Of a stretch of 64,000 nucleotides of DNA, positions 4,823 to 60,581 are shown in pieces. Within the stretch, counting starts at the first letter, position 1. Each line of letters opens with the position of its first letter. The notes under the pieces were generated by a model. It searched no databases. It saw only the letters and a list, made by a program, of their open reading frames with translations, and was not told the origin of the DNA. The translations under genes and the position numbers were made by a program. The DNA comes from a virus, in the IMG/VR virus record IMGVR_UViG_3300025000_000007, positions 9,430-73,429 of that record. The stretch is one strand, 5' to 3'.

Positions 4823-5554
4823 ATGAAAGTAATATATGAACCAAAAGGAAAAGCTAAAGAATACGCTGACCTAGCTGTAAATCTGTATAACGGTTGTTCT
4901 CATGGCTGTGAATACTGCTATGCTCCTGCTGTCATGCACAAGACTAAAGAAGATTTTTTTAAGATACCATCACCAAGAAAGAACATTATCGAACTGTTAA
5001 AAAAAGACATAACTGAAATGGTTGTGAATTGCGACGAAAGAGAAGTGCTTATGTGTTTCTCTTGTGATCCGTATCAACCAATCGACACTGAATACAAACT
5101 AACACGGGAAGCGGTCAGGCTATTTTCAGAGCATGATATCAATTTTGCCATACTCACAAAGGGCGGTAAACGCTCAGAAAGAGATTTTGATATCATGGAA
5201 TGGAGTTCTGACCTTTGCAGATATGGAGCTACCCTGGTATTCTGCAATGACGATCACTCAAAAAAATATGAACCATTCGCGGCTCCAACTTCGGAAAGGA
5301 TAGAGAGCTTAAGGAAAGCTCATGAGATGGGTATCAGGACATGGGTGAGCTTAGAACCTGCTTGGAGTTATGCAGATGTATCAGACTTGATTCAGAGGAC
5401 TTCCGGATATGTGGATGAGTATAAGATAGGAAAGCTGAATTATCATGCTCATGCAAAAGAAATTGATTGGAAAGTGTTTAAGGAAGAGGTCGTTTATTTG
5501 TGTGATGGATTGGGAGTTAATTATACTTTGAAAAATGATTTAGCAATTCTTTAA
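4823..5554 (+). CDS. Radical SAM protein (SPL/DNA-repair photolyase-like family)
   Basis: NLYNGCSHGCEYCYA (CxxxCxxC), DPYQP, ILTK, WVSLEP motifs. Confidence 0.85.
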   Translation: MKVIYEPKGKAKEYADLAVNLYNGCSHGCEYCYAPAVMHKTKEDFFKIPSPRKNIIELLKKDITEMVVNCDEREVLMCFSCDPYQPIDTEYKLTREAVRLFSEHDINFAILTKGGKRSERDFDIMEWSSDLCRYGATLVFCNDDHSKKYEPFAAPTSERIESLRKAHEMGIRTWVSLEPAWSYADVSDLIQRTSGYVDEYKIGKLNYHAHAKEIDWKVFKEEVVYLCDGLGVNYTLKNDLAIL

Positions 5555-6037: not shown

Positions 6038-6199
6038 ATGGCAGCAAATCAGGTAACTATCCAACGTACTAACACAGGACAATTAACCATTACAATCCCT
6101 ATAGCCATTGCTGGCTCGAAGGGGTGGGGAAAAGGCACGAAATTAGAATTTGTAGATGATAGATATGGAGAAACTGTCCTGAAGGAAGTGAAAGAATGA
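6038..6199 (+). CDS. AbrB/MazE-like DNA-binding protein
   Basis: GQLTITIPIAIAGSKGWGKGTKLEF; GGTGA RBS. Confidence 0.75.
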   Translation: MAANQVTIQRTNTGQLTITIPIAIAGSKGWGKGTKLEFVDDRYGETVLKEVKE

Positions 6200-6729
6200 C
6201 CGTCAGAGTATATAGGAGGGTGTCAACAAATCTTCAGGATTTTGAAGAACAGAACCGAGGAATTGAAAGATACCTACAAAATAACGGGATAAGCTCATAT
6301 GTAAATTATGAAGAACCTGGGATAACCGGGACCATAGCTGAACGTCCTGTATATCAAAAATTGCTTTCTGAGGTAGTCAGTGGAGATATTGTATTAGTTT
6401 ATGAATACTCAAGGATGTGGAGGGATCTTGAAGAACAGGCTAAAATTATAAAGCGTTTTATGTCGATTGGGGTAATTTTAATATCTGCGGTAGAGGGTCC
6501 GGTAAAAACCATAGACGATGTTTTGAAGTTGAATATACTAGGGTCCGTTAATCAACACGAGGCTGAAAGATTCCGCAGGCGTTCTATGGAGGGTATTAAA
6601 GCACTACAGGAGAAAGTCTCGAAGGGTGAAGCTATTTGGAACGGTAGGGGGAAGGATAAGACCCCGAGGAAAACGGATGGATATTTTAGAAGATGGGCTA
6701 ACAATCGTATAGGGGTCGCACATGAATAA
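6196..6729 (+). CDS. Small serine recombinase (resolvase/invertase family)
   Basis: VYRRVST catalytic Ser, ERP....LL....GD..LVYEYSR..R, E.ER...R..EG. Confidence 0.88.
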   Translation: MTVRVYRRVSTNLQDFEEQNRGIERYLQNNGISSYVNYEEPGITGTIAERPVYQKLLSEVVSGDIVLVYEYSRMWRDLEEQAKIIKRFMSIGVILISAVEGPVKTIDDVLKLNILGSVNQHEAERFRRRSMEGIKALQEKVSKGEAIWNGRGKDKTPRKTDGYFRRWANNRIGVAHE

Positions 6730-17763: not shown

Positions 17764-18696
17764 TCATGCTTCCGCCTCTTCAAGTCTGGCTCGGGAAGCA
17801 TTCAAAGCCTGCAATTCAGCTTCATGATAAGCTATCTTCTCAGAAATAACTTTTAAATCATTATAAACAACCCGATCCAACTTTAAAACTATTGGATAAT
17901 TTTTAATTAACCATTGGCGGATCATATCTTTATACATCTTAATAGCTCGCGCCCTGTTCCCTGCGAAGATCACATGACATCCTCGCATCTCAAGCCCTGC
18001 AATTGTTGCTTCTCGTGTTGCAACGGATACCCCTATATGATTTGTATTTCTCTTAGCGTGCCCGTTGTCGTCCCTTCCATTGTATGCAGGCACATACTTT
18101 ATGTAATCCTCGTAAGAGCATTCTGCAATGAGATACATCTCGTGGAAGCGGGAATCGTCCTTGAATCTCTTTATTTCTTTGTAGAAAGTCTCTCTTGAGT
18201 GGGCACTTGAAAGAGTTGCATATATGTCATTTGGGATACCTTGCCCTTTCTTATCCTCTTTCCCGCCTTTTCGTTCTACTATAAAGGGAATCCATCCGGC
18301 ATAACCAACACCTTGATAGTAAGCTTGATAATCAGCCGTCTGCTCGATTTTAATCTCTGCTTTTGTGAGCATTTTCCTAACTTGATGCCCTAAATCTTCT
18401 TCTTTCCAGGGATAATGTTCTTCGGGGGATTGAAAAATAATCACTTCTACGAGATCAGCCCATACTTTCAGTTGATTATTTAATTGAGATTTGAGTGTTT
18501 CGATGTCCGCTTCCAATTGTTTTTTAACAACAGCGATATCTTTTTTTGGAGCTTTTAAAGACAAACATTTAGTTATTTTAGTCTCTTGTGTTTTTATTTG
18601 TGCGTGTAGTTCTCTGATTCTTGCCTCATAATCTTGAATAGTCTTAACTTTCCCCACGTTCCCACCCCCCATCACATACACAAGTCGAATACTCAT
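17764..18696 (-). CDS. ERCC4/XPF-family nuclease with coiled-coil flanks
   Basis: ADY....IVERK...D...T....RETFYKEIKR...YLIAE. Confidence 0.75.
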   Translation of the reverse strand: MSIRLVYVMGGGNVGKVKTIQDYEARIRELHAQIKTQETKITKCLSLKAPKKDIAVVKKQLEADIETLKSQLNNQLKVWADLVEVIIFQSPEEHYPWKEEDLGHQVRKMLTKAEIKIEQTADYQAYYQGVGYAGWIPFIVERKGGKEDKKGQGIPNDIYATLSSAHSRETFYKEIKRFKDDSRFHEMYLIAECSYEDYIKYVPAYNGRDDNGHAKRNTNHIGVSVATREATIAGLEMRGCHVIFAGNRARAIKMYKDMIRQWLIKNYPIVLKLDRVVYNDLKVISEKIAYHEAELQALNASRARLEEAEA

Positions 18697-18947: not shown

Positions 18948-19622
18948 TCATACCCCCACCGCCAGGATCTTCTTAATCTCATCCATGTCAGAGCCAACTC
19001 TACAATGGGCATTGATATCATGCAGGAGAATTACCCCAGGCTTCAAACCCGCTTGAAATGCAACATATTCCAACAGGTAAGCGTATCCCCTCAGATCATT
19101 TTTCATGGCAATAGCCATCTCATTAGACCTGCCGAGAATCGTTAAATTAACATAGTCATTATCTTCGTCTTCTTCGGTGTCCCATACCAAAGTGACCATA
19201 CATGGAACTTCATTCTTCCCGTAATGTTTTGTCTTAAAAAGAGGATTTACAATTCTACGGCTTTTAGGTGACTCCTTCAGTTTTCTAATAGTCTCATCTA
19301 ATCCACCATCTTCATGGAGTTCCTGACCGTATGTATATTCAGGGTCCTGTACATCCAGACCGGCATTTTCCCCAAAACAAACAGGGTTTCCAGTTATCAG
19401 GTTTTTACCAAAAGCGAAACCACATATAAAACTAAGCAATTCTTCTGAATCTTCGCAACAGTAACATGGAATTACTATAATAACATGTTTATAATATTGA
19501 ACCGTTTCTCCACGTTCATCTTTTCCGCGTTTTCCTTTATTCATGATTAATTTGACTGTTCTATACGTGGCTTCTCTTATTGATTTACAGACTAATGTTT
19601 GGGGGATTATAGGAGGTGTCAT
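18948..19622 (-). CDS. Thymidylate synthase / dCMP hydroxymethylase family protein
   Basis: YTYG, SRR, PC catalytic Cys, RSNEMAIAMKND, NAH motifs; start MTPPII after GGAGGGG. Confidence 0.8.
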   Translation of the reverse strand: MTPPIIPQTLVCKSIREATYRTVKLIMNKGKRGKDERGETVQYYKHVIIVIPCYCCEDSEELLSFICGFAFGKNLITGNPVCFGENAGLDVQDPEYTYGQELHEDGGLDETIRKLKESPKSRRIVNPLFKTKHYGKNEVPCMVTLVWDTEEDEDNDYVNLTILGRSNEMAIAMKNDLRGYAYLLEYVAFQAGLKPGVILLHDINAHCRVGSDMDEIKKILAVGV

Positions 19623-19746
19623 AATTTCCCCTCCAACTGCCTGAACATCCCACAACACGAACAATCCGGCTGATGAGTACAATTATAACTATCACTTTTA
19701 TATATTGTGCATTTTTTATTTCCTTTCGGGGAAAAGGGGCACTGGC

Positions 19747-20283
19747 TCATAATAACCCCTCCGGAATTCTTGAAACGATTTCCTCATGTATCTCTTCAAC
19801 GGTCTTCCCGTCTACGAATATCCCCTCATATTCCCTTGAAATACCTTCAATTATAAACAGCTTACTTACTTTCTCTTGATACTCTTTTTTCCCGTATATG
19901 TCAGAATCCTGTCCGTATGGGGCCCCACAAAACACAAGTGTGAAATCTGGTTCAGGAAGCAATGCAGCGTTTTCTCTTACCCATTCTTCATCGAGTCCAT
20001 CAGCCAACCCATAAACAATCGCAGATAATTTAAAACGATCAAAAATATAATTTTCATTTGGGTTCAATCGTCTGATAGTTTCCGTCTTGTTGCTGTCCTG
20101 CAATGCTTGAAACGAAACCGGTTCAAACGGCAATTCTTTATTCAATATCTGCCTTATTATCTTTCCCGAGTATAATTCCTCGTTCGGAAATTTAACATAA
20201 GTCCATCCAAACCTTTCAGCTAAAAGTTTAGCGTGTGTTGTCTTCCCTACACGATCCTTTCCGCAGAGTGCTATTATTTTCAT
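19747..20283 (-). CDS. Thymidylate-kinase-family dNMP kinase
   Basis: GKDRVGKTT P-loop, KFP, IFDRFKLSAIVYG, LPEPDFT. Confidence 0.88.
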   Translation of the reverse strand: MKIIALCGKDRVGKTTHAKLLAERFGWTYVKFPNEELYSGKIIRQILNKELPFEPVSFQALQDSNKTETIRRLNPNENYIFDRFKLSAIVYGLADGLDEEWVRENAALLPEPDFTLVFCGAPYGQDSDIYGKKEYQEKVSKLFIIEGISREYEGIFVDGKTVEEIHEEIVSRIPEGLL

Positions 20284-20365: not shown

Positions 20366-20950
20366 TTACACCTTCACGAATAATTCACAGTGGCACATAT
20401 CTTCCAGCTCCGCAGTCTTGGCCTGCTGCACCCATCCAGGACACGGGCAGAATGTATGATATTTTCCATCACTCGGAACGGTGCAAGGACATGGAGTATT
20501 CCCTTTCTCAGTCTCGATTACGCCCATATACAGAAGAGTACCAAGCAGCTCGGGGTCTTCAATATTGAGTTTGCATCCTAACTTCCCCGCTACAAATAAT
20601 AGATGCTTGAGTGGGATCTCCTGCGGGTTCCATGTGAAAACTGTTACATCGTCATTTGTTGAGATGTCTTGAATGACTCTATAAAATGATTCACTCGTTT
20701 CAGTATTATTTATTTTAATAAATACATGAGGGAATGATTTCTTAACCTTTTGAACTTTCATGGCTTCATCATTTGACAGATACCGGACGGTATTATTTTT
20801 GATTCCGCTTTTTTCTTTTCCATAAAATTCAGGGCGACTTTTAAATGAGAGTGTGTTATCGTTGACTTCCATCACAACCCCTGCCAGAGTGTCAAAATGA
20901 AAACGATTAACGATACGACAATCACAAAGTATTTTAGCAAATTCACTCAC
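20366..20950 (-). CDS. Fusion of an ASCH-like N-terminal domain and a ferredoxin:thioredoxin reductase catalytic-type domain
   Basis: C-terminal CPC...CPC...CHC.LFV; N-terminal FKSRPEFYGKEKSGIKNNTVR resembles ASCH/PUA. Confidence 0.6.
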   Translation of the reverse strand: MSEFAKILCDCRIVNRFHFDTLAGVVMEVNDNTLSFKSRPEFYGKEKSGIKNNTVRYLSNDEAMKVQKVKKSFPHVFIKINNTETSESFYRVIQDISTNDDVTVFTWNPQEIPLKHLLFVAGKLGCKLNIEDPELLGTLLYMGVIETEKGNTPCPCTVPSDGKYHTFCPCPGWVQQAKTAELEDMCHCELFVKV

Positions 20951-26692: not shown

Positions 26693-26860
26693 ATGCAAGA
26701 AGACACAGAAAATGAAACGAAAACAATTAACCTAGACATTAAGCTAAAAAGAAAGATAGAGGAATACAATTTTAAGAACCGAAAAAATAAAATAAATGTT
26801 TCTAAGGTTTGCAGGGATGCGCTTTGGGAAGAATTGAGGAAACGTGGAGTAGAAGAATGA
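26693..26860 (+). CDS. CcdA-like/RHH small protein (55 aa)
   Basis: Own translation ...KTINLDIKLKRKIEEY...KINVSKVCRDALWEEL; ATGA overlap with the next gene. Confidence 0.6.
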   Translation: MQEDTENETKTINLDIKLKRKIEEYNFKNRKNKINVSKVCRDALWEELRKRGVEE

Positions 26861-28896
26861 CAATTAAACATGTTAAACAGGAATTACAAGAAAACTTCAT
26901 TGAAATGACTAAAGAATCTACTCATTTATTTGAAGTAGATTTAGATAAAGACGCACTGTGGGATTTGTATCTCAGTAGTTTTCCAGCCGGTACAAACGAG
27001 ATATTCAGAGAAAGGCGCGAGCATGACTGTAGTGCTTGCAGGCAGTTCATAAAGAGAATAGGTAACGCAGTTATCATAAAAGACAATACCATTCGAACAG
27101 TTTTTGACTTTGAAACTGAAAGTTTTGAGTATAAACCTGTAATGAAGGCACTATCAGATTTTGTCAGATCGAAAGTGGTTTATAATATTTGGGTGAGTAA
27201 ATTTTCAAAAATCGGAATTGATAAGAATTACGAGCAGACAGAAGGGAAAATAATTGAATGGGAACACTTCTTCCTGGAATTGCCAAGTAAATACGTGAAT
27301 AAATCGGGTAAATCTGAAGGAGATGTAAAAGGAGATTTTAGGGCAACAAAAGAAGTATTCAAAAGATCACTGGAAGAAATTACAGAAGATAGTCTTCTAA
27401 CCATCATTGAATTAATAGCGTCCAACACTCTTTATAAAGGGGAAGAATGGAAAGGAGTGCTTTCTGAATTCCTCAAATATAAAAAAGCATATGCTAAGTT
27501 AGATTCCGAAACAGAAAAAAATAATTTTACATGGGAGCAGTCCGTAAAAGCCGGGGCAGTGATCGGAAGAATCAGGAATCATAGTATTGGCGTTCTTCTC
27601 GTTGATATCAGCGGGGGCATGGATTTAGACGAGGCTGTCAGGAGATATGAAAATATTGTAGCCCCTACCAATTATAAGAGACCGAAAGCGATATTCACTA
27701 AGAAGATGCTAGAGGACGCAAAAAAGACGATTGAAGATATGGGATACATCAATTCATTGCCCCGGAGATTTGCAACACTCCACGACATCACAGTTAATAA
27801 TATTCTCTTCTCAAATAAGGATTCAGCAAAGAAAATCAAGGGAAATGTGTTTGAAGAGATGTCAAAAGATGTTGCTGTGAACTCAAAGAAGTTTTCAAAA
27901 ATCGAAGAAATGTCGATTGATAACTTTGTTCAAAATGTTCTTCCAACTGCAAAAGAACTTGAGGTATTATTTGAGAATAGTCATTCTAAAAGTATGGTGT
28001 CTTTGATCGCGCCTGTAAATAAAGATAGTCCTTCAATGTTCAAATGGGATAACGCTTTCAGTTGGGCGTATTCTGGAAATATAACAGATTCCTCCATGAA
28101 AGAAAATGTCAAATCTGCGGGAGGCAACGTTGAAGGAGTTCTGAGGTTTTCTATTCAGTGGAATGATGGAGAGTATAATCCAAACGACTTTGATGCTCAC
28201 TGTATTGAACCAAGGGGAAACGAAATTTTCTATGCAAATAAACGTAATCCCAGAACTACTGGGCAATTAGATGTTGATATTATCAGCCCACAAACAAATA
28301 AACCAGCGGTTGAGAATATAACCTGGACTGATAAATTTAAAATGCAGGAAGGTATTTACAAATTCTTTGTTCGCAATTATAATAATAGAGGAGGGAGAGA
28401 AGGATTTAAAGCAGAAATAGAGTTTGATGGACAAATATATTCATTTGAATATAATAAAGAACTAAGACAGAGTGAAAATGTACAGGTTGCCGAAGTTACT
28501 TTCAATCACAATACAGGCTTTACAATTGTGGAAAACCTACCCTCAAATGTCTCTACAAAAGAAGTATGGAACCTTAAAACGAATCAGTTTGTTCCAGTGT
28601 CGGTAGTCATGTATTCTCCTAATTATTGGGATGAACAAACCGGGATTGGGCACAGGCATTATCTATTCATGTTGAAAGACTGCATTAACCCCGAGCAGCC
28701 GAATGGGTTCTATAACGAGTTCCTGAAAAGAGAACTTGAACAGAATAAAAGAGTATTTGAGGCACTTGGTGGTAAAATGCGAGTGCAGGACACAGATGAT
28801 CAACTATCAGGTATAGGATTCTCATCTACAAAAAGAAACGAAGTTATTGTAAAGGTAAAAGCACAGACTGAAAGAGTAATTAAAGTAAAAATTTAA
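26857..28896 (+). CDS. Large conserved phage protein of unknown function with a YfaP/DUF2135-like domain
   Basis: HDCSAC; FSIQWN...DFDAHCIEP...LDVD...AVENITW; start reassigned to ATG 26857. Confidence 0.7.
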   Translation: MTIKHVKQELQENFIEMTKESTHLFEVDLDKDALWDLYLSSFPAGTNEIFRERREHDCSACRQFIKRIGNAVIIKDNTIRTVFDFETESFEYKPVMKALSDFVRSKVVYNIWVSKFSKIGIDKNYEQTEGKIIEWEHFFLELPSKYVNKSGKSEGDVKGDFRATKEVFKRSLEEITEDSLLTIIELIASNTLYKGEEWKGVLSEFLKYKKAYAKLDSETEKNNFTWEQSVKAGAVIGRIRNHSIGVLLVDISGGMDLDEAVRRYENIVAPTNYKRPKAIFTKKMLEDAKKTIEDMGYINSLPRRFATLHDITVNNILFSNKDSAKKIKGNVFEEMSKDVAVNSKKFSKIEEMSIDNFVQNVLPTAKELEVLFENSHSKSMVSLIAPVNKDSPSMFKWDNAFSWAYSGNITDSSMKENVKSAGGNVEGVLRFSIQWNDGEYNPNDFDAHCIEPRGNEIFYANKRNPRTTGQLDVDIISPQTNKPAVENITWTDKFKMQEGIYKFFVRNYNNRGGREGFKAEIEFDGQIYSFEYNKELRQSENVQVAEVTFNHNTGFTIVENLPSNVSTKEVWNLKTNQFVPVSVVMYSPNYWDEQTGIGHRHYLFMLKDCINPEQPNGFYNEFLKRELEQNKRVFEALGGKMRVQDTDDQLSGIGFSSTKRNEVIVKVKAQTERVIKVKI

Positions 28897-59045: not shown

Positions 59046-60581
59046 TCAGCGATTTTTAGCTGGAAACATGAGAGAAACGTCAAATCCTTTGTTTTTGAAT
59101 GGATTTTCAATTACAACCTGAGTTGCAAAACTTACAACATCCACGCAATCATCATGTGCGGCATTTGGGAATCCTAAAAGCTCAGTTTCAAAGTCGTGTA
59201 ATCCCGGCAGAGTATCCAAAAAATAGATAGTTCCGGTTGCAATTCTCGTCGCCGCCGGGATAAATCTTGAAACTTTATCAGATTCTTCTTTGATTCTGTC
59301 TACAGGTAGCCCTTCTGCTTTCAGTGTTTGAAACAGACTGATACCTAATCCGGCGGTCCCCACCCACTGTTTAACGGGTTTCCATCGTGTGTACTGCTGT
59401 TTGAATAGAGATACCTGATCTGGTGTTTCTAAGCGGGTTTTTATGAGGTCAATTAATGCAAGATCGTTGTTCGGAGTCTGCGCCCATGTTCCTAGAGCAA
59501 AGTAATCGGCACTTGTTTTTGTACTCGCTGCCGGGTCACATGTCTGGAAAATACGACATTGCGAGAGGAGATGCTGTTTTGTTTCTCCGAGATCGAGTAT
59601 TTCACCACGGATGGAGCAGTATTTAAACTGTTCTCTTTTTACGAGGTTTCCGGCTGCTGCGGATGGGCGTTGTTGATAGAGGGAGAGCCATTCATATGCG
59701 GTAAACGTTTCTTTAGTTCGAAACATATCTTCAGTAGAAAACTCCTCCTCCCATAATGCTTGATTTGGTCCAGTTCTCTGATCGTATGCGGCTAGCGTTT
59801 CTTCTGATAACGCCGGGAGTGACAATACTTCCCATTGATCAGCGTTTGGATTTTTATCTGCAATGTCTAATACCCAACCAAGCAGATCATCTTCTTGCCA
59901 ACGTGTTAATGTAAGGAGTATGCCGGCCCCCTTTTGCCGTCGGGTTCTAAAAACGCTATTGTACCAATCTTTAATATTTTTTCTGTATGTGGGGCTTTCA
60001 GCATCTGCTCTATTGCGTATGGGGTCATCGATTATGCCGTAATCGAACCCAAAGCCAGTTATGGAACCCCCGACTCCTGCACATTTATATATACCTTTAT
60101 GCCCTACAATTTCAAATATTTCCGAATTCCTTAAATAACTCCCATGTGAATCTGATCTGACGTTCGATTCATTTAGTCGTATATTTGGGAAAACTTCGTG
60201 ATATTCAGACGAGCTTAAAATACGTTGGACGTCACGATTCATCATTGACGCTAGGTCTGCACCATAAGAACATGAAATAATCTTTGCGTCGGGTTTTACT
60301 CCAAATATAAAAGCAGGTAGCCTCCTTGACACAAATTCACTTTTAGTATGTCTAGGAGGCATTGTGATAGCTAGATTCTTAATTTCCCCTTTTACAAACT
60401 GATCCAATTTAGATGCAACTAATTTATGATGCCAGCTTTCCCTAAAATCATCCATTGTAAAACGGGTAAAATCAAGAATGTTAGTACTAGCCCGTCGTCG
60501 TTTTATTTCGTGATCACTGGCTTTTATCTGTTCAAGTGCCCTGTATATATCCAGCGTCTGCGAGTTTTTTGAGGTTATCAT
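59046..60581 (-). CDS. terL: Terminase large subunit
   Basis: MPPRHTKS (Walker A), GIIDDP (Walker B), TRW..DD, LYQQRP, DPA, HDDCVD. Confidence 0.95.
   Translation of the reverse strand: MITSKNSQTLDIYRALEQIKASDHEIKRRRASTNILDFTRFTMDDFRESWHHKLVASKLDQFVKGEIKNLAITMPPRHTKSEFVSRRLPAFIFGVKPDAKIISCSYGADLASMMNRDVQRILSSSEYHEVFPNIRLNESNVRSDSHGSYLRNSEIFEIVGHKGIYKCAGVGGSITGFGFDYGIIDDPIRNRADAESPTYRKNIKDWYNSVFRTRRQKGAGILLTLTRWQEDDLLGWVLDIADKNPNADQWEVLSLPALSEETLAAYDQRTGPNQALWEEEFSTEDMFRTKETFTAYEWLSLYQQRPSAAAGNLVKREQFKYCSIRGEILDLGETKQHLLSQCRIFQTCDPAASTKTSADYFALGTWAQTPNNDLALIDLIKTRLETPDQVSLFKQQYTRWKPVKQWVGTAGLGISLFQTLKAEGLPVDRIKEESDKVSRFIPAATRIATGTIYFLDTLPGLHDFETELLGFPNAAHDDCVDVVSFATQVVIENPFKNKGFDVSLMFPAKNR

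Follow-up and report, generated by a model that had tools for sequence, protein, structure and literature searches.

Does a tailed virus that probably infects a methanogenic archaeon encode an enzyme that modifies cytosine before the base is built into viral DNA? The question is raised by a gene for a homologue of thymidylate synthase (TS) that lies in a stretch of 64,000 nucleotides (hereafter the window), bases 9430-73429 of the 73,429-bp IMG/VR virus record IMGVR_UViG_3300025000_000007. An original prediction, made from the letters of the window, held that the encoded protein carries the Asp typical of cytosine-specific TS homologues, that it makes 5-methyl- or 5-hydroxymethyl-(deoxy)cytidine monophosphate which the adjacent kinase phosphorylates, and that the modified viral DNA so obtained resists host restriction or CRISPR. 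We consider it reasonably probable that this protein, denoted P0001, is a C5 one-carbon transferase specific for 2'-deoxycytidine 5'-monophosphate (dCMP), belonging to a virus-borne, Asp-type branch of short TS homologues, and that it makes 5-methyl- or 5-hydroxymethyl-dCMP. The gene and the motifs on which this proposal turns are as follows (window coordinates):

18948-19622, minus strand: P0001, a short TS-fold enzyme of the Asp type (D-class), 224 amino acids, putative dCMP C5 one-carbon transferase (PF00303)
19200-19211, minus strand: EVPC, with Glu138 (at the position of E. coli Leu143) and the catalytic Cys141 (direct translation)
19095-19130, minus strand: RSNEMAIAMKND, with Arg165, Ser166, Asn167 and Glu168, through Asp176 (direct translation)
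18999-19007, minus strand: HCR, with His206 (E. coli His207) and Arg208, which replaces Tyr209 (direct translation)

The complete open reading frame (18948-19682, minus strand) would encode 244 amino acids from a TTG codon; the start seen in homologues corresponds to an internal ATG at 19622 and yields the 224-residue P0001. The protein matches PF00303 with 41.1 bits against a gathering cut-off of 24.3 (39.7 bits in a six-frame search) and retains the entire catalytic set of that superfamily, namely the Cys of the Pro-Cys dipeptide, the Arg pair, the Arg-Ser dipeptide, the Tyr and the His equivalent to His207. Residues were mapped through HMMER alignments to solved TS chains and through a MAFFT alignment with E. 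coli ThyA, T4 gp42 and RB69 gp48. In the HMMER alignments, the Asp of 'amknD' in P0001 falls on the Asn of 'gvpfN', and in the MAFFT alignment Asp176 occupies the position of Asn177 of E. coli ThyA, with Glu168 at Asp169 and Arg208 at Tyr209. The same alignment places Cys141 at Cys146, Tyr98 at Tyr94, His206 at His207, Arg122/Arg123 at Arg126/127 and Arg165-Ser166 at Arg166-Ser167. The motif strings cited in the original prediction are exactly present at the positions given above, and its reading of a cytosine-type Asp, of Glu in place of the conserved Asp and of HCR in place of HxY agrees with this mapping. Across 38 short-type homologues, Tyr98, Pro140-Cys141, Arg165-Ser166 and His206 are invariant, and Arg122-Arg123 nearly so. 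We reject the possibility that P0001 is an inactive pseudoenzyme, given that the catalytic residues are all kept and that 36 columns are invariant over 24 homologues of at least 41% identity.

The distribution of the Asp among relatives indicates that it is anything but an idiosyncrasy of this virus. Homologues were sought in two ways: a word-indexed search over 5.8 billion proteins, whose 26 matches include the window's own protein, and an exhaustive phmmer search over 1.84 billion representatives, which yielded only 50 proteins at E <= 0.001. With the window's own longer form (P0002) and 11 shorter or longer matches (P0029, P0036, P0043, P0054, P0059, P0060, P0067, P0068, P0073, P0074 and P0076) dropped, the homologue set comprised 65 proteins of 180-320 amino acids. 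At the position of E. coli Asn177, 45 of these have Asp and 20 have Asn, and Asp176 is kept in all 26 close homologues (P0003-P0028, 41-87% identity). In a maximum-likelihood tree of 49 rows, from which 19 near-duplicates of the close clade were left out and which was rooted at its midpoint, 24 Asp rows, P0001 included, form one clade (the D-class; support 94/89), and its sister is a clade of 17 short Asn rows (the N-class; 99/96). RB69 gp48 and two long-branched Asp rows fall outside both, and classical ThyA and T4 gp42 group together across the midpoint root, far from P0001; a phylogeny with these two enzymes had been proposed as a check on the prediction, and it sets P0001 within the D-class, apart from them. 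Two changes of the Asp/Asn label suffice on this tree, a number that none of 500 shuffles matched.

The two classes also differ at other positions of the active site. The base-reading column is Asp in 24 of 24 D-class rows and Asn in 17 of 17 N-class rows; column 209 is Arg (15/24) or Ile (8/24) in the D-class and invariably Tyr (17/17) in the N-class; column 168 is Asn throughout the D-class (24/24) and mostly His (9/17) or Asn (5/17) in the N-class; and the Phe71 column is Phe in all 24 D-class rows versus Tyr in 15 of 17 N-class rows. Because the clades are separate and the active-site columns co-vary, the Asp is, on this comparative evidence, the mark of an old, functionally diverged subfamily and not of a recent slip or drift. 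Moreover, P0001 scores 77.4 bits on TIGR03283, the NCBI equivalog model for methanogen-type ThyA, and thus misses the cut-off of 174.55 by about 97 bits; the four other D-class proteins tested also fall short (77.8-114.9 bits), whereas all six tested N-class proteins pass (176.9-261.3 bits). By this model, the short Asn-type proteins are genuine methanogen-type ThyA, and P0001 is not their orthologue. The prediction would have been refuted had close host ThyA homologues shared the Asp; among the tested relatives that pass TIGR03283, all have Asn. In terms of known systems, methanogen-type TS, exemplified by ORF59 of Methanobacterium virus PhiF1, belongs to the sister clade of P0001 and shares with it a compact fold of about 200-230 amino acids with neither the Trp80/Trp83 loop nor the C-terminal tail, together with the DERG, YxYG, (S/T)RR, E-x-P-C, RS and AH motifs; it has Asn177, Tyr209 and mostly His168 where P0001 has Asp176, Arg208 and Asn167. 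The TS of the cultured virus PhiF1 is itself of the N-class (RSHD...PN, AHIY). In that genome, the gene adjoins one for a DnaE-type polymerase with an annotated N-terminal family-4 uracil-DNA glycosylase domain (L006 5922-10660, ORF57/58).

Taken as a whole, the D-class is, as these comparisons define it, a distinct, deep and previously uncharacterised virus-borne clade built on the archaeal short scaffold. One of its subclades is found on contigs that carry YopX and Terminase_3 genes, typical of bacteriophages, and by this token the D-class extends beyond archaeal viruses; the search for loci on viral contigs covered the D-class other than its subclade B. Two D-class genes, in the locus L005 (NZ_JAQVBV010000079.1) and in P0087, come from contigs binned into metagenome-assembled genomes of Bacteroides or Parabacteroides; L005 looks viral and has the same pair of a TS-like gene and an ERCC4-like gene that is described below, which points either to a wrong bin label or to a host range beyond methanogens. 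On a 9.9-kb IMG/VR contig (L013 4989-5628, plus strand), the D-class TS-like gene shows several stops after about residue 95, an interruption that corresponds to a frameshift and reflects either a pseudogene or an assembly error.

With respect to the substrate, Asp at position 177 (as in N177D) is a published determinant of dCMP specificity (PMC13326640), and PMC8670742 likewise states that Asp at this position selects dCMP and that the N-to-D exchange turns classical TS into a dCMP methylase; T4 gp42 D179N is described as inactive in an excerpt of PMC6400193. For the sugar, the combination of Ser167 and Arg126 confers deoxy preference, and Ala and Lys, as in the CMP-preferring MilA, confer ribo preference (passages of PMC5175136). 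P0001 has the deoxy-type Ser166 and Arg122, lacks the MilA-type Ala/Lys pair, and shares Ser166 with 25 of its 26 close homologues; since this pair is kept, these residues point to dCMP rather than CMP as the substrate. The departure is P0006 (75% identity), which reads RANE for RSNE and thus has Ala at the position of Ser167, as in the ribonucleotide-tolerant MilA. As for the cofactor, Asn at position 169 is diagnostic of the 5-hydroxy-dCMP synthases that depend on flavin and O2 (PMC13326640); RB69 gp48 has this Asn, P0001 has Glu168, and the column is Asp in 14 and Glu in 10 of the 24 D-class rows and Asn in none. This makes it probable that P0001 has remained a pterin enzyme, as would also suit an anaerobic host.

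We thus propose a mechanism along the following lines. Cys141 would attack C6 of dCMP, which Asp176 would select over 2'-deoxyuridine 5'-monophosphate; a methylene-pterin, either tetrahydrofolate or the tetrahydrosarcinapterin/methanopterin of the host, would donate a one-carbon unit to C5, and the product would be 5-methyl-dCMP or 5-hydroxymethyl-dCMP. Where a Tmk-like kinase is present, it could phosphorylate the modified monophosphate, and completion of the triphosphate and its incorporation would then fall to host enzymes, given that no viral polymerase was found. Methanogens use one-carbon carriers of the methanopterin type, and Methanosarcina has been reported to possess some folate-dependent enzymes as well.

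The structural model is compatible with such an activity. An AlphaFold model of P0001 computed with a 38-sequence alignment has the TS fold (pLDDT 94.2, pTM 0.91), and VIA alignments to TS-family structures give Z scores of 20-22.7 over 200-206 residues. A homodimer is predicted with an ipSAE of 0.88 versus 0.00 for the best of three controls, with contact agreement between runs of at least 97% and partner pLDDT of at least 88; in calibration, the ipSAE mark was reached by 20 of the 30 homodimers and by 1 of the 23 monomers of known structure, and, because TS dimers have already been solved, the pass may reflect likeness only. In the dimer model, Arg122/Arg123 of one chain contact Arg165/Ser166 of the other, so that P0001 is predicted to be a homodimer with a shared phosphate site.

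Among enzymes of established function, T4 gp42 (EC 2.1.2.8) resembles P0001 in its base-reading Asp (T4 Asp179), in the acidic residue three positions before the Cys (T4 Asp145), in the RSN(D/E) motif, in the lack of a closing C-terminal tail and in a presumed pre-replicative role alongside a deoxynucleoside monophosphate kinase. It differs in having a Ser two positions before the catalytic Tyr, in keeping Tyr218 and in retaining part of the folate loop, and it works together with a dCTPase and glucosyltransferases, neither of which was detected in the window virus. The N229D mutant of Lactobacillus casei TS and the dCMP methylase of phage Xp12 demonstrate that a TS scaffold with Asp can methylate dCMP (parts of PMC8670742 and PMC5175136), and the N229D structure (1njc) is the third-best match of the D-class profile; both are long, folate-dependent classical TS, unlike the short fold of P0001, with the Xp12 enzyme compared by its description only.

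Several observations weigh against our proposal or narrow it, beginning with the enzyme itself. As judged by alignment, two elements of folate-dependent TS, the Trp80/Trp83 loop and the C-terminal tail, are missing from the short fold of P0001, and the literature yielded no biochemically characterised member of the D-class. Tyr209 binds the 3'-OH of the sugar in TS and in T4 dCMP hydroxymethylase (passages of PMC5175136), and its replacement by Arg implies that sugar binding may differ. The marks of a hydroxymethylase are an acidic residue three positions before the Cys and a Ser or Thr two positions before the catalytic Tyr (excerpts of PMC6400193). The former is present as Glu138, three before Cys141, but does not discriminate, because the same column is Glu in 12 and Asp in 3 of the 17 Asn-type N-class rows; the latter, Ser94 in T4, is Tyr96 in P0001 and Tyr in all 24 D-class rows. 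With Glu138 shared with the N-class and Tyr96 at the Ser position, the sequence does not separate 5-methyl-dCMP from 5-hydroxymethyl-dCMP, which we take to be about equally likely. Hence, of the synthesis that the original prediction envisaged, the cytosine-type Asp stands, and the choice between the two products cannot be read from the sequence.

A second group of difficulties concerns the kinase. The TS-like gene lies within a block of replication and recombination genes on the minus strand, in which its neighbour is:

19747-20283, minus strand: Tmk-like nucleoside-monophosphate kinase, 178 amino acids (PF02223 Thymidylate_kin, 49.5 bits against a cut-off of 27)

This protein reaches 38.9 bits on TIGR00041, the equivalog model of dTMP kinase, against a cut-off of 83.25. 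Its closest sequences in the PDB are class I thymidylate kinases; in the HMMER alignment with them, an Asn of the window protein falls on the Arg of 'sanRwe' and a Leu on the preceding, stacking Phe. This 'sanRwe' or 'ANR' Arg is, we assume, the residue with which thymidylate kinases read O4 of thymine, and the substitutions, together with the equivalog score, provide a weak hint that the base preference of the viral kinase differs from that of dTMP kinases. The kinase adjoins the TS-like gene in only two of five loci, the window and L003, where the homologue beside the TS-like gene has 47% identity, and the protein was found in one of four related records. A complete 56-kb relative (G003) has the TS-like gene, and its best PF02223 score is a sub-threshold 12.7 bits. 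The adjacent Tmk-family kinase of the original prediction is thus present in the window, and its link to the TS-like gene is not conserved.

A third group concerns the viral DNA. Six-frame family searches across the entire 73-kb genome, in each of which control genomes were matched, found no MazG, dUTPase-fold protein or dCMP deaminase, no C5 or N6/N4 DNA methyltransferase, no ThyX and no PolB, and Pfam and PHROG scans of 47 open reading frames found no glycosyltransferase; since these searches came out empty, an apparatus of the T4 type for excluding dCTP and decorating bases was not detected. Palindromes were counted over the whole genome (the window together with the contiguous remainder, L007) against a maximal-order Markov expectation, and several that contain C proved to be strongly avoided. 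GGCC is seen 52 times against 109 expected (z about -6.8), GATC 268 against 332 (z -4.5) and CTAG 80 against 108; among six-base sites, GGATCC is seen 0 times against 15.3 expected, CTGCAG 4 against 23, ATCGAT 10 against 28 and CCATGG 2 against 12.9. The mean z is -1.5 over the 64 six-base palindromes versus 0.0 over all hexamers. These counts suggest that restriction pressure still acts on C-containing sites, or else the virus could mirror the oligonucleotide usage of its host. Avoidance would be expected to relax if every C were blocked, and the counts thus speak for replacement that is partial, conditional or nil; complete replacement in the virion DNA is less probable than a partial one or none. 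The claim that the virion DNA resists restriction or CRISPR thus finds no support in gene content or oligonucleotide statistics.

These same observations bear on the alternative that survives best, which we nevertheless regard as unlikely: a divergent thymidylate synthase, in which the Asp is tolerated, acting with a thymidylate kinase to boost dTTP for an AT-rich genome. ThyA and Tmk are a classical pairing, and the best family models name the two window proteins as TS and Tmk; haloarchaeal tailed viruses commonly encode both (according to parts of PMC8651126), and the methanogen virus PhiF1 carries a methanogen-type TS. The avoidance of restriction sites and the lack of a detected dCTPase would furthermore fit unmodified DNA. 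Against this, the PhiF1 enzyme is of the N-class (Asn, AHIY), which shows that the genuine type does occur in viruses; against it stand also the perfect partition of Asp and Asn with co-varying active-site changes, the wide margin by which P0001 fails TIGR03283, the conversion of classical TS into dCMP methylase by N-to-D mutation and the sub-threshold score of the kinase on the dTMP-kinase equivalog.

The next alternative grants that P0001 methylates dCMP and holds that a host enzyme deaminates the resulting 5-methyl-dCMP to dTMP, or that the nucleotide is incorporated at a low level without replacement throughout the genome. This scheme would account for the absence of a detected dCTP-excluding enzyme, for the persistence of palindrome avoidance and for the dispensability of the kinase in relatives, and Methanosarcina acetivorans, a member of our control panel, does match the dCMP deaminase family. 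It is otherwise purely conjectural, and the deep conservation of the Asp-type clade in viruses suggests a virus-specific benefit beyond the supply of dTMP; we give it a low probability.

Structural comparison brings up a third possibility, that P0001 is a flavin-dependent dCMP 5-hydroxylase of the AfhB/RB69 gp48 type that makes 5-hydroxy-dCMP. The closest solved structures are 9iqu ('phage HY126 dCMP hydroxylase AfhB with dCMP') and 9iqc, identified from their PDB titles and from PMC13326640. In VIA, they score Z 22.7 (203 aligned residues, root-mean-square deviation 2.6) and 22.5, respectively, over 203-206 aligned residues, about 2 units above other TS-family structures (MilA reaches 20.9, and many ThyA chains about 20.5); in Foldseek, 9iqu leads (TM 0.76/0.78), followed by MilA (0.77). 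A profile of 22 D-class sequences likewise matches 9iqu/9iqc best among PDB sequences (5.6e-25, full length), ahead of MilA (7.3e-21), the L. casei N229D mutant (4.5e-20) and wild-type TS (from 4.9e-19). P0001 and AfhB share a compact build, Asp at 177 and the absence of both the folate-loop region and Tyr209, and in RB69 a gene annotated as thymidylate kinase lies three genes from gp48, its product resembling the window kinase weakly (30% over 93 residues). Yet AfhB and gp48 have the diagnostic Asn169 (RSQN) where P0001 has Glu168, RB69 gp48 branches outside the D-class clade, pairwise identity is 24% over 119 residues, and a reaction that needs O2 appears implausible in what would be a strictly anaerobic methanogen. 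We therefore consider this activity very unlikely. The remotest alternative is a ribonucleotide (CMP) hydroxymethylase akin to MilA/BcmA that serves a non-DNA product, for which the second rank of MilA in structural and profile comparisons, the loss of Tyr209 and the Ala of P0006 can be adduced, and against which stand the deoxy-type Ser166 and Arg122 noted above, the setting of the gene in a viral replication/recombination module and the failure to find an N-glycosidase or biosynthetic partner.

Cytosine modification by an Asp-type TS homologue is a textbook principle for phages, and such homologues are the entry to nearly all known pre-replicative cytosine modifications of phages, namely 5-methylcytosine (5mC), 5-hydroxymethylcytosine and, since 2025-26, 5-hydroxycytosine. 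To our knowledge, the characterised examples all come from bacterial viruses or from Streptomyces. A haloarchaeal phage fully substituted with 5mC was reportedly described by Vogelsang-Wenke and Oesterhelt in 1988, and we found no gene assigned to that substitution. The original prediction described the activity as not well documented for methanogen viruses; consistent with this, we found no paper on cytosine modification by a TS homologue in archaeal or methanogen viruses, in a literature search that did not extend to supplementary tables or to the main compendium of methanogen viruses (Nature Microbiology). The word 'thymidylate' does not occur in PMC9796341 or PMC13465236. A bolder form of our proposal, which we put forward as rather improbable, is that the D-class is an ancient virus-borne branch that makes C5-modified dCMP under anoxic conditions with a methanopterin-type or other non-folate cofactor; it would give methanogen viruses their first gene-level route to DNA in which cytosine is replaced. 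Should P0001 prove active on dCMP, the D-class would provide a sequence marker for cytosine-modified DNA in viruses of methanogens and other anaerobes, with a bearing on sequencing bias, on evasion of CRISPR and restriction and on virome surveys, and it would offer a tractable protein for asking which one-carbon carrier the short TS fold employs.

Two further neighbours of the TS-like gene deserve mention:

20366-20950, minus strand: protein of 194 amino acids resembling ferredoxin:thioredoxin reductase (FTR-like), with the pattern CPC...CPC...CHC (PF02943, 19.8 bits, below the cut-off of 22)
17764-18696, minus strand: ERCC4-like nuclease candidate, 310 amino acids (ESM Atlas lead)

In the FTR-like protein, it is the C-terminal region of about 55 residues that resembles the reductase catalytic chain. 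Its gene lies directly upstream of the kinase gene in both kinase-bearing loci, the window and L003 (200-448, plus strand), where the counterpart has 82 amino acids and the pattern CPCPC...CHC; a gene resembling an Fe-S disulfide reductase thus sits inside a viral cluster for nucleotide metabolism. In the boldest version of our proposal, the FTR-like protein, the kinase and the TS-like protein may form a trio for reductive methylation, with electrons drawn from ferredoxin rather than from a pterin. The ERCC4-like gene occurs just downstream of the TS-like gene in all five loci: in the window and, in the others, at L002 6963-7832, L003 2846-3583, L004 6836-7633 and L005 7068-7883, with an invariant VERK motif. 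The first structural row of the ESM Atlas for this candidate is PF02732 ERCC4 (TM 0.79), which reaches the threshold set by that tool, with a feature score of 0.86 that counts as a lead only, and searches of Pfam, PHROG and PDB sequences gave no match. Across these loci, the constant partner of the TS-like gene is therefore the ERCC4-like protein, the kinase being optional. The TS-like and ERCC4-like genes may be functionally linked, for instance through a nuclease that tells modified from unmodified DNA, or their pairing may simply follow from synteny of the module.

The virus itself has the attributes of a complete tailed virus. The IMG/VR record is rated 100% complete with direct terminal repeats, and an exact terminal repeat of 116 bp was found in the 73-kb genome, which has a GC content of 39% and encodes a large terminase, a Mu-F-like head protein, a tape-measure protein and a major-head-protein-like gene product. 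A 475-aa viral protein contains the disaggregatase-related domain PF08480 (93 bits), and the best match of the terminase among 50,697 phage records is 'Caudoviricetes sp.' with Methanomicrobiales in the host field (40.3% identity); because of these two matches, the host is likely to be an archaeal methanogen. The stretch is present in four runs from one groundwater-metagenome study, all of them possible sources of the assembly, and no RNA run is listed. Other features of the genome include:

59046-60581: large terminase
4823-5554, plus strand: radical SAM protein, 243 amino acids (PF04055, 42.7 bits; phrog_13321, 108.7 bits)
6196-6729, plus strand: small serine recombinase (Resolvase N-terminal domain, 84.6 bits)
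26809-28896, plus strand: protein of 695 amino acids (PHROG 1735, function not assigned, 890 bits over the full length)
L007 1023-3554, minus strand, outside the window: HerA/FtsK-like ATPase, 843 amino acids (DUF87, AAA_10)

The small serine recombinase may confer a capacity for inversion or integration, and the 695-aa viral protein is highly conserved and matches no Pfam family. The HerA/FtsK-like ATPase gene adjoins that of a 1145-aa beta-helix/NosD protein, which reaches into the window at bases 1-402.

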